Assembly (NCBI GenBank): GCA_951406725.2
Contig: OX597835.1
Span: forward strand, 42,966,001 to 43,030,000
Direction of reading: 5' to 3'
From: Octopus vulgaris
Taxonomy: Eukaryota
DNA length: 64,000 bases
The notes beneath the pieces were generated by a model, which was not told where the DNA came from, searched no databases, and saw nothing but the letters and a program-made list of their open reading frames with translations. A program made the translations under genes and the position numbers. Shown piece by piece: positions 19,660-47,410 of this stretch (the first letter of the stretch is position 1; every line of letters starts with the position of its first letter).

Positions 19660-20035
19660 TTAAAATAAGTAACAAGTATATCCAAGGTAATGTGGTACGA
19701 TCATTTCATACTACTTCATTTTATTAAACACTGTAAGCATTACATCAGTTTTAAAATGTCGAGCAATCTACAGCCACCTATAGAAATTTTTGAATCAAAC
19801 GGACAATGCACATTCTTATCCCTATCTCTGTCTTTTATATCTACCCTCTTTATAATGTTGTCAAATGAAATAGGGATAAGAATGTGCATTGTCCGTTTGA
19901 TTGGGAAATTTCTATATGTAGCTGAAGATTGCTTGACATTTTAAAACTGATGTAATGCTTACAGTGTTTAATAAAATGAAGTAGCATGAAACGATCGTAC
20001 CACATTACCTCGGATATACTTGTTGCTTATTTTAA
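19660..20035. mobile_element. Fold-back element (~165-bp arms, ~45-bp spacer) carrying hammerhead H2
   Basis: 19660-19825 is the reverse complement of 19870-20035; the left side extends to ~19561; (TA)n at the right end. Confidence 0.8.
19916..20005 (+). ncRNA. Type I hammerhead ribozyme motif (family H2)
   Basis: ATGTAG-CTGAAGA-T-TGCT..AGCA-T-GAAA-CGATCG-TA-CCACAT; palindromic stem III ACGATCGT. The inverted arm (19690-19779, minus) holds a decayed copy (CTGTAGA, GAAATGATCGTA). Confidence 0.75.
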
Positions 20036-20310
20036 ATATATATATATATATATATACTGTCAGTAGAAACACAAATCCAAAGAAGAAGTATGCTCTAAGT
20101 TATAGGGCAGTTTATAATATGAATTAAATTAGATCTATCACTACAGAGGCTTTGAACAAGTTAATGAATACAAAAAAATACGTGACATCTCAACGCTTCT
20201 AAAGCAAACTTCGCTTGTTTGCTTACATTCATCGTTATTTGAATCTAACGTATGATAGTGTCTCGTAAAATGAGATTTCTATATATCTTAAATTTGCGGA
20301 AGAATTTGTG

Positions 20311-20404
20311 GTGTGGATGGTTTAGATTAATAGTTCGGAGCACCGTGACATGTAATCACGGAGGTGTGAGTTCAAGTTTCATACCCGGCCGCCAACACTT
20401 TTTT
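20311..20404 (+). pseudogene. Decayed tRNA-like sequence followed by T6, inside a ~312-bp repeat unit
   Basis: A-box-like TGGTTTAG, D stem GTTT/GAGC, stem CCGTGA/TCACGG, T arm GTGAG-TTCAAGT-TTCAT, ends GCCA then TTTTTT; acceptor stem is poor and isotype unresolved. Confidence 0.45.
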
Positions 20405-20622
20405 CTGCAAAATAGGGGTGGCTTATCCTGTTCAGGCTATATTATTAGCATCATCCCGCGTTTGAGAATTTAAAATCACTTCTTTAACTTTCTAAGACAT
20501 CTCAACGCTTCTAAAGCAAACATCATTTGTTTGTTTACGTTCATCGTAATTTGAATTATATATATACATATATACATATTTAAGTCCAAGACTGTGAAAT
20601 ATTTCAGAACATTTATATATAG

Positions 20623-20670
20623 GTCTTACAGCTGTTTCCAGGATATTTTATATATCCCTTCATCGGAGAC
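20623..20670 (-). ncRNA. Type I hammerhead ribozyme motif with CCGATGA core
   Basis: Reverse complement GTCT-CCGATGA-A-GGGATAT-ATAAA-ATATCCT-G-GAAA-CAGCTG-TA-AGAC; palindromic stem III ACAGCTGT. Confidence 0.72.
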
Positions 20671-22980
20671 GGTGTGAGAGAATGGTTAAGCAATAGTTAT
20701 TATAGAGAAAATATGAAACAGAGAGTGAAGCGGAGGAATGAAAATAGACGTGAGATATGCAGGGATATTGTATCTATTTTCATTATTTAGGCAGAATGGT
20801 ATATATATATATATATATAAGATTCCTGTACCTTGTGAGTAACTTCCAATAGTAATTAAGTTCCAATAGTATTTTTTTTGTATATATATATACACACGCT
20901 GATATATGACCTATGTTGGACTCCTCATTTGCATGAGTCCTGATTGGAAGAAGAAGAAGAAGACTACTACAGCATATACTTGATCACGAAAATACAAATT
21001 TCACAACTTGCAGAGTAAACACAGCAATGTCACTCAGCCCACCACTGCCTCATGAAGGTCAATGTAAGCTCTCACTGCACATGCAACCATGTGCTGCCAT
21101 CTGTTGGCATGCAACAGAACTAGCAGGGAACTTTTTAATACCACCTATTATTACAACCCCACTAAGTTGAAGTGGAGTGGGGGGGGGGCAGTGATTTTTC
21201 AATATTTTTCTTCGTCTTGTTTTATGGCGACCCCACTGGTGCTGGTGTCACGAAAAAGGCACCCGTTGCACTCTGTGAAGTGGTTGATGTTAGAAAGGGC
21301 ATCAAGGTGGAGAAACCAGGCCAAAGCAGACACTGGAATTGAATGTGGCCCTCTGGCTCATCAGATCCTGTCTAACCATCGAATCCATGCTAACGTGGAA
21401 AACTCGTGTCAAACAATGATGATGGTAGTCATGGTGATAGCAGTGGTAGTGATGGTGGTGGTTGTGGTGGTGGTGGTGATGAAGATGGTAGTGGCTGATG
21501 ATGATGGTTGATGACAATGAAGATAAGGAGGAGGAGGATAGTCGATGATGATGGTGGTGGCATGGTGGTGGTGGTGGTGGTGGTGGTGGTGGTGGTGATG
21601 AGGATGGTGATGGCTGATGATGATGATTGATGAAGAATAAGGAGGAGGAGGAGGATAGTCGATGATGATGGTGGTTGATGATGATGATGATGATGATCAT
21701 GACTACAATGAATATGATGAAGTGGTGGTGATGATGATGATGATGATGATGACTAAACAGACATTTGAAAGTCATTCAAGGCAATTTCAATAATAATAAT
21801 AATAATGATAATAATAACAAAAAAAATTTTAAAAGACAGACAGTTCTATTGTTTCTTTTTTGATCATGTTTCGATCTAAAAGAACATTTCCAAATAACAA
21901 ATAAATTACTGGGGACACGGAAAACAAAATTTAATCAACTGATGTCTCCCGAGGAATATCTGAAAATGTTTGAATTCAAATTGTGTTAGCAAATTACTGC
22001 CAGACCGGCGCTGTTGCATTTCCATCAAGAAGATGTCAGTCTAGTCCTTCAACACTGTTCCAATGAATCATTCAGAAAGTAGGATTTTTTACAATGAAAG
22101 AATAATAATAATAATAATAATAATAATAATAATAATAATAATAATAATGATGGTGGTGATAAATAATAATAAATTGTTTGGTTTCATATATTTGATGTTT
22201 CGAGGTGAAGACTGAAAAATACATTTCATAAATCACTTGGAAACCATTCCACATTAAAAGCCAGATGAATCTGAGATGACACACACAGACAGACATACAT
22301 GTGTGTGTATATATGTATATATATATATATATATATATATATATATATATATATATATATATATATATATATATATATATATATATATATATATATATAT
22401 ATATATATATATATATATATATATATATATAATATATATATATATATATATATATATATATATATATATATATATATATATATATATATATATAAATAAA
22501 GGCAGTGTGAGCTGGCAGAAACGTTAGCACGCCAGACGAAGTGCTTAGCGGTATTTCTTCGTCTGTCTTTATGTTCTGAGTTCAAATTCCACCAAAGTTG
22601 ACTTTGCCTTTCATCCTTTCAGGCTTGATAAATTAAGTACCAGTTGCATACTGGGGTCGATCTAATCAACTGCCCTCACCCTCCAACAATTTTGGCCTTG
22701 TGCCTAGAGTCGAAAAGTATATATATATATATATATATAAAAAGAAATCTGGCCGAAATAAGATTAAGATTAATGTAAAAAATAAATAACACTGAAGCAA
22801 AATAACACCAAATATATATAGTGCGTGTGTTTTTATTGGCTAAACTGGCAAAATGACCATTCCGAAATATAACAATATATATATATAATTATTAATATTT
22901 GAGGGAATAAAGTCCAAAACTTACAAGGAAAAAATTCAATTTAGAAATACTAAATCAAATTTCACACAATATAATATATA

Positions 22981-23220
22981 TATATATAAAATTAGAAAAA
23001 AAAAAACACCTTCTATCAATTCAAATGAACAATTAAATTACACCATCCAGAAAATTACATATAATAGAAATTATTATTTTTTGCAATTTACTTAATCTTT
23101 GACATTTTATTATTATTTTAATGTTAATATTTCTATTATATGTAATTTTCTAGATGGTGTAATTTAATTGTTCATTTTGAATTGATAAAAAATGGGGTTT
23201 TTTCTAATTTTATATATATA
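22981..23220. repeat. Fold-back element (~90-bp arms) between (TA)n tracts
   Basis: AAAATTAGAAAAAA..TATCAATTCAAATGAACAATTAAATTACACCATC.. mirrored at 23127-23220. Confidence 0.85.
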
Positions 23221-45574: not shown

Positions 45575-46048
45575 CTCCTATTAAATGTGTTGAATGCTCT
45601 TTTCTTTCATTTGTCCAGCATGGCTGTGTGGTAAGAAGCTTGCTTCCCAACCACATGGTTCCAGGTTCAGTCCTACAGTGTGGTACCTTGGCCAAGCGTC
45701 TTCTACTATAGCCTCAGGCTGACCAAAGCCTTTTGAGAAAATTTGGGAGATGGAAACTGGAAACTGAAATATATATATATATATATATATATATATATGT
45801 ATGTATGTATGTATATATATATGCGTGTGTGTGTGTGTATCAGGCATGTGTCATGAGTAATTACTTAGGGTAGGCAGTTGGTGACTTTTACGTAGTAAAA
45901 CACACAAAAAAATAAGCGAAACACAAGCACACAACTGAGTTGAAGGCAGATTTACTTCTGCCTTTATAGCGCGTAAACTTTTTCTCCTGCACTTACTCCG
46001 GAAGCAACTGTAGGTTGCGACAGCAACAATCTTCAGTCATATATATAT

Positions 46049-46320
46049 AGGGAGAGTTTACGGAAAAAAACAAAAGACGAAGACAGGTGGTGTACAAAAC
46101 AAACAGATGTATTAGTATAACGCTCAGGAATAGAAAAAGTCTTTTACGTTTCGAGCCTACGCTCTTCTACAGAAAGGGACACGGAGAGAAACAAGGAAAG
46201 ATAAAAATGTGTGTAGTGGCTAATGATCAATCATGGCGACTGACTCGGACAAAAGGGCCACACACGAGAAGGAAAGTAGGGGAGATAACAAGGTGAAGAT
46301 GACCCCCAACACGAAGGTGC
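46049..46320 (-). mobile_element. Dispersed repeat family E (carries the 46141 hammerhead-like motif)
   Basis: AAACAAAAGA.GAAGACAGGTG..TGTATTAGT.T.AC.CTCAGGAA also at ~24740-24818, with a diverged partial copy at ~27470-27535. Confidence 0.6.
46141..46176 (-). ncRNA. Minimal hammerhead-like motif with non-canonical core (CTGTAGA)
   Basis: Reverse complement CTTT-CTGTAGA-A-GAGC-GTAG-GCTC-GAAA-CG-TA-AAAG. Confidence 0.45.
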
Positions 46321-46568
46321 GTGTGTGTATAAGAGAGTATGTATGTGCGTGTGTGTATAAGAGAGTATGTATGTGCGTGTGAAAGAGGGCTGGTGGTCTG
46401 GACATGTGCGTGTATGTATGTGTAGGTGTGAAAACATATATATATATATATATATATATATAAAATTCAGGCTGAATACTTGATAACTGTAAGCACCTGT
46501 ATATGCCAGTTAGTGGTGTAGGTGATAGGGTATATTTATCAAAAGAAAAACAGGATGCAAATGATTTA

Positions 46569-46655
46569 GTGGTACATATGTTTCTGGCTTTATTGGACAG
46601 TTTATATCAATGCATAATTGATGTAACATGTATGTCAATAGCCTTCTTCAGCCGC
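46569..46655 (-). ncRNA. Type I hammerhead ribozyme motif (family H1, inverted arm, one stem I mismatch)
   Basis: Reverse complement GCGG-CTGAAGA-A-GGCT..AGCC-A-GAAA-CATATG-TA-CCAC. Confidence 0.7.
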
Positions 46656-47105
46656 GCACAATTACCACACCAAAGACATGTATTACATTATAGCAGGTTA
46701 TTTTTTTATTTTTTTATCCCTTTATATTTTTATTTTACGTCTTTTATTTTTTCGCTTCTTTATCTTTATTTATTTATATACTTATATACTTATTTTTTTA
46801 CTCTTATTTTTTTACATTACTTTTTTTACATTTTTACTTTTTTATTACATTTTGCACTTACTATTTTTCCTCTTTGTGATCCCAAACTCATTAGAGATTC
46901 ACCCCCTTCCACTCCTTCCCTCTTTATCTCAACATCCAACCTCCTCATTCTATATCGAGTGAAAAACGGTATGGACGTTTTGTTTTCGTGTCTCACTCTG
47001 CTCTATACGACTATGAGGATTTGCATCCCCAACGGAACTCGTCTTTTTCCCAAACTTCTCAAACCTGCTATAATGTAATACATGTCTTTGGTGTGGTAAT
47101 TGTGT

Positions 47106-47192
47106 GCGGCTGAAGAAGGCTATTGACATACATGTTACATCAATTATGCATTGATATAAACTGTCCAATAAAGCCAGAAACATATGTACCGC
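47106..47192 (+). ncRNA. Type I hammerhead ribozyme motif (family H1, diverged subfamily)
   Basis: GCGG-CTGAAGA-A-GGCT..AGCC-A-GAAA-CATATG-TA-CCGC. Confidence 0.78.
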
Positions 47193-47410
47193 TAAATCCT
47201 TTGCATCCTGTTTTTCTTTTGATAAATATATATATATATATGTATATATGTATATATATATCCTTAAAATCCTTAAAAATGTTTTGGCCCGAAGGCCGCG
47301 GCCATGCTGGGGCACCACCGCTGTTTATATATGTTTATATATATGTATGTATATTTATATATGTTTATATATATATATACGTATGTATATATATATATAT
47401 ATATATATAT

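Follow-up and report, generated by a model that had tools for sequence, protein, structure and literature searches.

TA-inserted hammerhead motifs of an Octopus vulgaris locus: truncated Penelope-like elements and two retrozyme-like families probably copied in trans

Results

Hammerhead motifs in the window

We analysed a window of 64,000 nucleotides (nt) on contig OX597835.1 of Octopus vulgaris (42966001-43030000, within a 2.8-Gb genome of 227 contigs), a stretch abundant in simple repeats in which hammerhead-ribozyme motifs lie in short inserts. A sequence-only reading had named 11 type I hammerhead sites in roughly eight unrelated contexts and ascribed them to a TA-targeted, non-autonomous retroelement population mobilised in trans, connected with Penelope-like elements (PLEs). 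A hammerhead-like motif is present at all 11 coordinates, and reading the sequence directly bears out that TA runs bound the inserts. The sites fall into nine repeat families, denoted A, A2, B, C, D, E, F, G and H, two of which are related, A2 being a sister of A (about 76-81% identical). Every hammerhead-bearing insert of the window is a member of a genomic repeat family. A first look gave 1504 (A), 1474 (A2), 2047 (B), 2979 (C), 1538 (D), 2555 (E), 1086 (F), 3521 (G) and 396 (H) candidates, figures that should not be taken as copy numbers, and the identity of the best copies ranges from 98-99% (A, F) down to about 85-90% (E). Per-family statistics refer to the 25 best copies of each family, at loci (L numbers) picked by similarity to the window copies. 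A TA run lies within 260 nt downstream in 22-25 of the 25 copies per family, against a background of 36%.

Comparison with dinucleotide-shuffled sequence, which the sequence-only reading had proposed as a control, placed the motifs well above chance. A strict type I descriptor matched the window four times and 40 shuffles of it not once, and a looser descriptor, which allows U4C and a long domain II and was tuned after the sites had been seen, matched six times against a mean of 0.01 and a maximum of 1 in 200 shuffles. The cores of the six full matches (20666-, 25091+, 38189-, 38464+, 41784- and 47110+) all belong to the 11 sites, and two of them pass with U4C. Among the other five, sites 19922+ and 46651- have one stem I mismatch each, 23462- (family D) is short of one A in GAAA, stem I is disrupted at 39160+ (family H), and the family G site (about 46172-) has the non-canonical core CUGUAGA (A6U), which recurs in 21/25 copies of that family. 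Four of the five failing sites are damaged copies of families with an intact hammerhead elsewhere, the fifth being that of family G. The core is also kept across genomic copies: of the 25 best copies per family, 20 in B, 15 in C, 22 in D, 18 in E and 21 in F retain the core pattern, as do 21 in G for its own non-canonical core.

The first four base pairs of stem I, compared in one natural copy chosen per family, pair fully in 8/8 cognate and 0/56 non-cognate combinations, which indicates that helix I covaries across eight families. A, A2, B and D have a domain II of 45-60 nt, which forms a long helix interrupted by internal loops when folded, so that the earlier description of the hammerheads as minimal does not hold for several of them. 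This length also explains why a simple core pattern with a domain II of up to 40 nt recovered only two motifs in 19660..47230. Core position 4 is C rather than U in 15/15 intact C copies, in 19/21 intact F copies and in most H copies inspected. The nine motifs were not alignable with MAFFT. Together, these data give good support to the reading of the window motifs as genuine type I hammerhead motifs, for which self-cleavage is a prediction; the activity of the hammerhead-like motif of family G is doubtful.

Coding Penelope-like parents

At locus L011, family A lies at the 3' end of a 5'-truncated open reading frame (ORF) with a 2.2-kb untranslated region (UTR), and an inverted copy stands on the other side. 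A search with this ORF returned 104 scored matches, several of them open frames of 835-850 amino acids (aa), and at 18 of 20 ORF-selected loci family A follows a PLE ORF in sense (the exceptions being L046 and L060), a linkage of the kind that the sequence-only reading had suggested looking for. The family A protein (L044) is a single 836-aa ORF in which a reverse transcriptase (RT) with YRDD is followed by a C-terminal GIY-YIG-like endonuclease (EN; Y717...Y730-I-G732). It carries DKT (126-128), CxCx5C (696-704), CxxC (793-796) and CxH (823-825), lacks CCHH, and reads RWA in place of RWK, with R39 and W40 conserved among homologues. Pfam and PDB searches of this protein gave no significant match, and its assignment therefore rests on these motifs and 1178 homologues, one of them named from Argonauta; it is assigned to the Hydra type because the presence of DKT, CxCx5C, CxxC and CxH together with the absence of CCHH is diagnostic of that type (PMC8557442).

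A profile built from the family A protein and 119 homologues detected a Hydra-type EN 1.1-1.2 kb upstream of family B in 4/25 copies, an EN remnant ~0.9 kb upstream of family C in 1/25 (L157), and a Hydra-type EN upstream of family F in 1/25 (L075). In addition, L060 ties family F to a long ORF that shares 36% identity with the ORF of A, has CxCx5C, CxxC and CxH, and by eye resembles a snippet of Hydra-1_Obim. Family G lies downstream of a distinct RT/EN in 2/25 copies, where a Cx4CxxC linker and a CxxC..H..H endonuclease were read by eye in degenerate copies (L213, L214) and the match to RVT_1 is weak (E 0.009); by motif its parent appears to be of Neptune type, Nematis being a further possibility. 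EN matches at L082, L102, L214 (downstream) and L223 were rejected, as they belong to neighbouring inserts. No ORF was seen for A2, including in a 3.6-kb inverted pair that shows a long UTR, and no parent element of family H was found in the loci examined.

Thus, the suspected PLE connection was right, with five families downstream of PLE coding sequence in the same orientation. On this evidence (motifs for A and F, the profile for B and C), A, B, C and F are taken to be the 3' ends, or pseudo-long terminal repeats (pseudo-LTRs), of 5'-truncated Hydra-type PLEs; since A, B, C, F and G are linked to PLE RT/EN elsewhere, what the window holds of them are dead ends that coding elements left through 5' truncation. 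Most hammerhead sites of the window are therefore truncated 3' ends of ordinary protein-coding PLEs, and the proposal of a non-autonomous, trans-mobilised population is wrong for at least five of the nine families and supported for D and E. The related statement that the window holds no helper ORF applies beside the motifs, but a degraded, stop-interrupted Hydra-type RT fragment lies at 28248-28592(-) (profile E 2.4e-6), with no hammerhead linked to it.

The ORF-less units D and E

In families D and E, the 3' end runs directly into the sequence that lies upstream of the hammerhead, a junction found in 9/25 upstream regions per family. Unit lengths among copies are 540-552 nt (D) and 502-508 nt (E); the D monomer has 542 nt, a GC content of 37% and a longest stop-free stretch of 66 aa, and the E monomer 506 nt, 32% and 61 aa, respectively. 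When the best 40 copies of each monomer were scored, 34 of the 40 D places spanned the whole unit (the query included, and two probably representing one duplication) and at least 18 had the 3' part of the unit before them in head-to-tail order, five of these head-to-tail copies extending back to or beyond the predicted cut site at 382. Between TA runs, L226 holds two complete D hammerheads 546 nt apart together with an inverted arm and a tail. For E, head-to-tail continuation was seen in at least nine of the best 40 copies, the longest starting at unit position 304, with the core at 303. Copies of both families are dispersed on different contigs and range from less than one unit up to about 1.7 units, and the monomers folded as circles gave z values of -2.9 (D) and -3.8 (E) against 30 shuffles. 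No EN was linked to D in 25 copies; at L129 an EN seemed to lie upstream of E but was discounted, since an inversion junction lies between them. Judged by these features, D and E are retrozyme-like: ORF-less, circularly permuted units with one type I hammerhead each.

Insertion footprint

Families B, D and E meet the TA run either directly or later, by about 100 (B), 110 (D) and 80-95 nt (E), and in family A, too, the two alternative ends are separated by about 75 nt. In the window, the left arm of this family reaches 35 nt past its usual tail (37970-38004), giving a third, longer end, and this sequence sits just before the ORF start in loci L046-L048. Six of the 11 sites are arms of head-to-head pairs, and in each of the pairs that A, A2, B and E form in the window a long end is joined to a short one. 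Across 122 loci we counted 55 such pairs, of which 44 had both ends classifiable: 41 were long+short, one short+short and two long+long (binomial p against 0.5, 8e-10). The long+short arrangement accounts for 18/19 pairs in A and 7/7 in B (25/26 together), and for 9/9 in D and 7/9 in E (16/18 together; p = 7e-4). No inverted arm was found among 25 copies of family G. D and E thus carry the same insertion footprint as the coding PLEs, with TA targets, two 3' ends and long+short pairs, and this shared footprint is the genomic evidence that supports trans-mobilisation of D and E by PLE enzymes.

Feature coordinates and other repeats

Table 1. Hammerhead-related features of the window, with parent types assigned from motifs or profile as described in the text
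Family	Positions	Strand	Description
B, left arm	19547..19824	-	3' end of Hydra-type PLE, ~100-nt tail, degenerate hammerhead; absent from the sequence-only reading
B, right arm	19825..20035	+	Short end; core 19922, domain II 59 nt, one stem I mismatch
C	20582..20859	-	3' end of Hydra-type PLE; core CCGAUGA (U4C, family-wide) at 20666
D	23231..23479	-	Partial copy of ORF-less 542-nt circularly permuted unit; core 23462, GAAA minus one A
G, fragment	24740..24815	-	No intact hammerhead
E, left arm	24894..24998	-	Inverted, short end
E	24997..25382	+	Partial copy of ORF-less ~505-nt unit with tail; intact core 25091
A, left arm	37970..38334	-	Pseudo-LTR and tail of Hydra-type PLE; intact core 38189
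A, right arm	38319..38569	+	Short end; intact core 38464, domain II 51 nt
H	39146..39226	+	Very short 3' end; core CCGACGA, stem I disrupted in window copy
F, inverted arm	41712..41801	-	Complete hammerhead, core CCGAAGA at 41784
F, right arm	41799..41955	+	3' end of Hydra-type PLE, truncated within hammerhead 5' side
G	46048..46437	-	3' end of Neptune-type PLE (by motif); minimal hammerhead-like motif, core CUGUAGA
A2, left arm	46463..46688	-	With tail; core 46651, one stem I mismatch
A2, right arm	46689..47225	+	Short end; intact core 47110, domain II 60 nt
B, fragment	48443..48528	+	3' part of hammerhead region; beyond the range of the sequence-only reading

Other repeats share the window. 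Abundant SINE-like (short interspersed element-like) repeats, without a hammerhead core, also occupy TA runs (19184-19548, 23520-23570, 41258-41653, 44935-45385 and others). Near-perfect inverted repeats without a hammerhead core lie at 45397-45572 and 47425-47705, the second bounded by TA runs, and are possibly other inverted insertions or elements like miniature inverted-repeat transposable elements. ORF translations at 28860-29770(-) and 53898-54359(+) resemble the RT C-termini of RTE-type long interspersed elements. Elsewhere, more unrelated hammerhead families flank the loci studied (L054:742 and 7913, L056:8568, L057:8398, L048:7102 and L226 ~1720-1810(-)), one of them with a domain II of ~65 nt; the genome carries hammerhead families beyond the nine of the window.

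Discussion

Our data lead us to a reading that we hold with considerable confidence: the window contains TA-inserted 3' ends of several PLE families together with partial D and E units that were likely copied in trans by a PLE RT-endonuclease. In this scheme, which also draws on published PLE biochemistry, the PLE protein would cut both strands at (TA)n, reverse transcription would start at two internal RNA sites, one per DNA end, and early stops would leave the short 5'-truncated arms, while a protein encoded by another element, probably one of Hydra type, would act in trans on the RNA of D and E. The Hydra type is the most likely helper, as a candidate only, because tails and inverted pairs are seen in the Hydra-linked families A and B while family G showed no inverted arm. 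The template of D and E must exceed one unit and would thus be either a circle or an uncleaved tandem transcript; the data cannot separate the two, and we lean slightly towards a circle formed by hammerhead cleavage and ligation. A fuller account falls just short of being probable and is offered tentatively, namely that D and E are hammerhead-processed circular-RNA retrozymes parasitising a Hydra-clade PLE, and that the rule of one long and one short end reflects a dimeric PLE protein priming both ends of one double-strand cut from two RNA start sites.

The most serious competitor sees truncated ends of autonomous PLEs in every one of the nine families and attributes the tandem appearance of D and E to local internal deletions. 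This is what we found for five of the families, truncated solo and inverted PLE hammerheads have been described as the common case (PMC4209133), and only top-scoring copies were looked at; yet deletions of local origin do not agree with one ORF-less junction recurring at many dispersed loci on different contigs (34/40 full D units; also E), and neither the 25 D copies without a linked EN nor the sole E match, beyond its inversion junction, agrees with autonomous ends. As an account of every family it is unlikely. The opposite extreme, that all families are non-autonomous retrozymes mobilised in trans, suits D and E and the fact that all inserts of the window are short and ORF-less, but A, B, C, F and G contradict it, each being continuous elsewhere with the coding sequence of a PLE, and it is barely credible. 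The head-to-tail organisation of D and E might also be that of satellite-like tandem repeats that owe their spread to recombination or to rolling-circle amplification of DNA rather than to PLE proteins, and local amplification of retrozyme arrays has been discussed (10.64898/2026.07.22.740005). Against this, D and E are dispersed, do not exceed about 1.7 units, stop next to TA runs at either of two fixed points and, as the coding families do, pair a long with a short end head-to-head, which makes amplification of this kind very improbable.

Several observations weigh against the preferred reading, in which PLE enzymes copy D and E among the truncated ends of PLEs. Rfam, also put forward by the sequence-only reading as a check, returned no hammerhead match for the window motifs at gathering scores and none among 150 of the 244 matches listed at E<=1, its miRNA-like matches falling on simple repeats, and at most window sites the full three-way hammerhead fold is not the minimum-energy structure (z -2.5 to +1.5). 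The coding links of families C and F come from one locus each within the 25-copy samples. Neither D nor E resembles the reference ends of A, B, C, F, G or H in sequence, so that no helper can be named from them; no long tandem arrays were seen in the best copies examined, and a rare long coding parent could lie outside the best 40 copies scored for each. The count of 41/44 long+short pairs omits the 11/55 pairs with a truncated or intermediate (neither long nor short) end, and the pair loci were selected by likeness to the window copies rather than by an unbiased census. Finally, hammerhead cleavage was not needed for insertion of a PLE in vitro (PMC11167929), which weakens the circle step.

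That PLE ends carry hammerheads, and that Hydra-clade PLEs insert in TA runs, including in octopus, was already known; new here are two retrozyme-like families whose insertion anatomy suggests mobilisation by PLE enzymes. D and E share this footprint with coding PLEs in a genome that holds intact, recently active PLE frames, and their anatomy supports an idea already in print, that animal retrozymes are moved by the enzymes of PLEs, offering a concrete RNA together with a candidate enzyme. If the account of D and E as paired-priming parasites is true, it would provide a defined RNA-plus-enzyme system for studying the movement of animal retrozymes. In addition, hammerheads with a long domain II and family-wide core variants are missed by Rfam, and such elements may stay unlabelled in standard annotation.

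Comparison with known systems

The Hydra clade includes Hydra-1_Obim of Octopus bimaculoides, for which the supplement of PMC8557442 gives a (TA)n preference and a hammerhead. As described there, elements of this clade resemble family A in the RT with a C-terminal GIY-YIG, in DKT, CxCx5C and CxxC/CxH without CCHH, in the canonical 3' hammerhead and (TA)n targets, and in the tail, which in PLEs is often at one end only, and the inverted 5'-truncated copies. Family A differs in having RWA instead of RWK, in the length of its protein (836 aa) and in a 3' UTR of ~2 kb, Hydra elements being generally <3 kb; the 45-60-nt domain II of A, A2, B and D contrasts with the short loops that supplement S2 shows for Hydra elements, and the U4C cores, family-wide in C and F and common in H, further set these families apart from Hydra-clade hammerheads (PMC8557442). 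Family G is similar to the Neptune clade in its Cx4CxxC and CxxC..H..H motifs, minimal stem III and bulged base before helix II, and unlike Neptune hammerheads in its core CUGUAGA (PMC4209133, PMC8557442). Solo hammerheads and opposite-strand pairs from truncated PLE copies have been described before (PMC4209133). For O. vulgaris itself, a 2026 repeat annotation reports 31 recently active PLE families, and its main text contains none of the words ribozyme, hammerhead and retrozyme (PMC13282606).

Metazoan retrozymes, with their circular RNAs and with PLEs as candidate helpers, have been described in PMC7229834, and a recent preprint argues for their PLE origin (10.64898/2026.07.22.740005, bioRxiv); an origin from PLEs and a helper role for them had already been proposed in both. 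We found no cephalopod retrozymes in the literature searched, most subscription journals lying outside its reach. D and E resemble metazoan non-LTR retrozymes in being ORF-less, low in GC and head-to-tail, with one type I hammerhead per unit, and differ from them in occurring as dispersed copies of no more than about 1.7 units instead of as long arrays, and in a length of 505-545 nt against ~300 nt as typical (PMC7229834; 10.64898/2026.07.22.740005). The two-site PLE tail and the long+short inverted pairs counted here were not found in the portions of these two sources available to us.

The closest biochemical counterpart is the Poseidon PLE studied in vitro (PAc Poseidon, PMC11167929), in which two adjacent internal RT start sites make the tail and AT-rich DNA undergoes cutting and extension of both strands, much as we suggest for the elements of the window. 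The tails here are about 80-110 nt long compared with 30-40 nt in PAc Poseidon, which belongs to a different clade, and in vitro that system showed no strand difference in the choice of start site (PMC11167929), whereas the genomic pairs of O. vulgaris are nearly always long+short.

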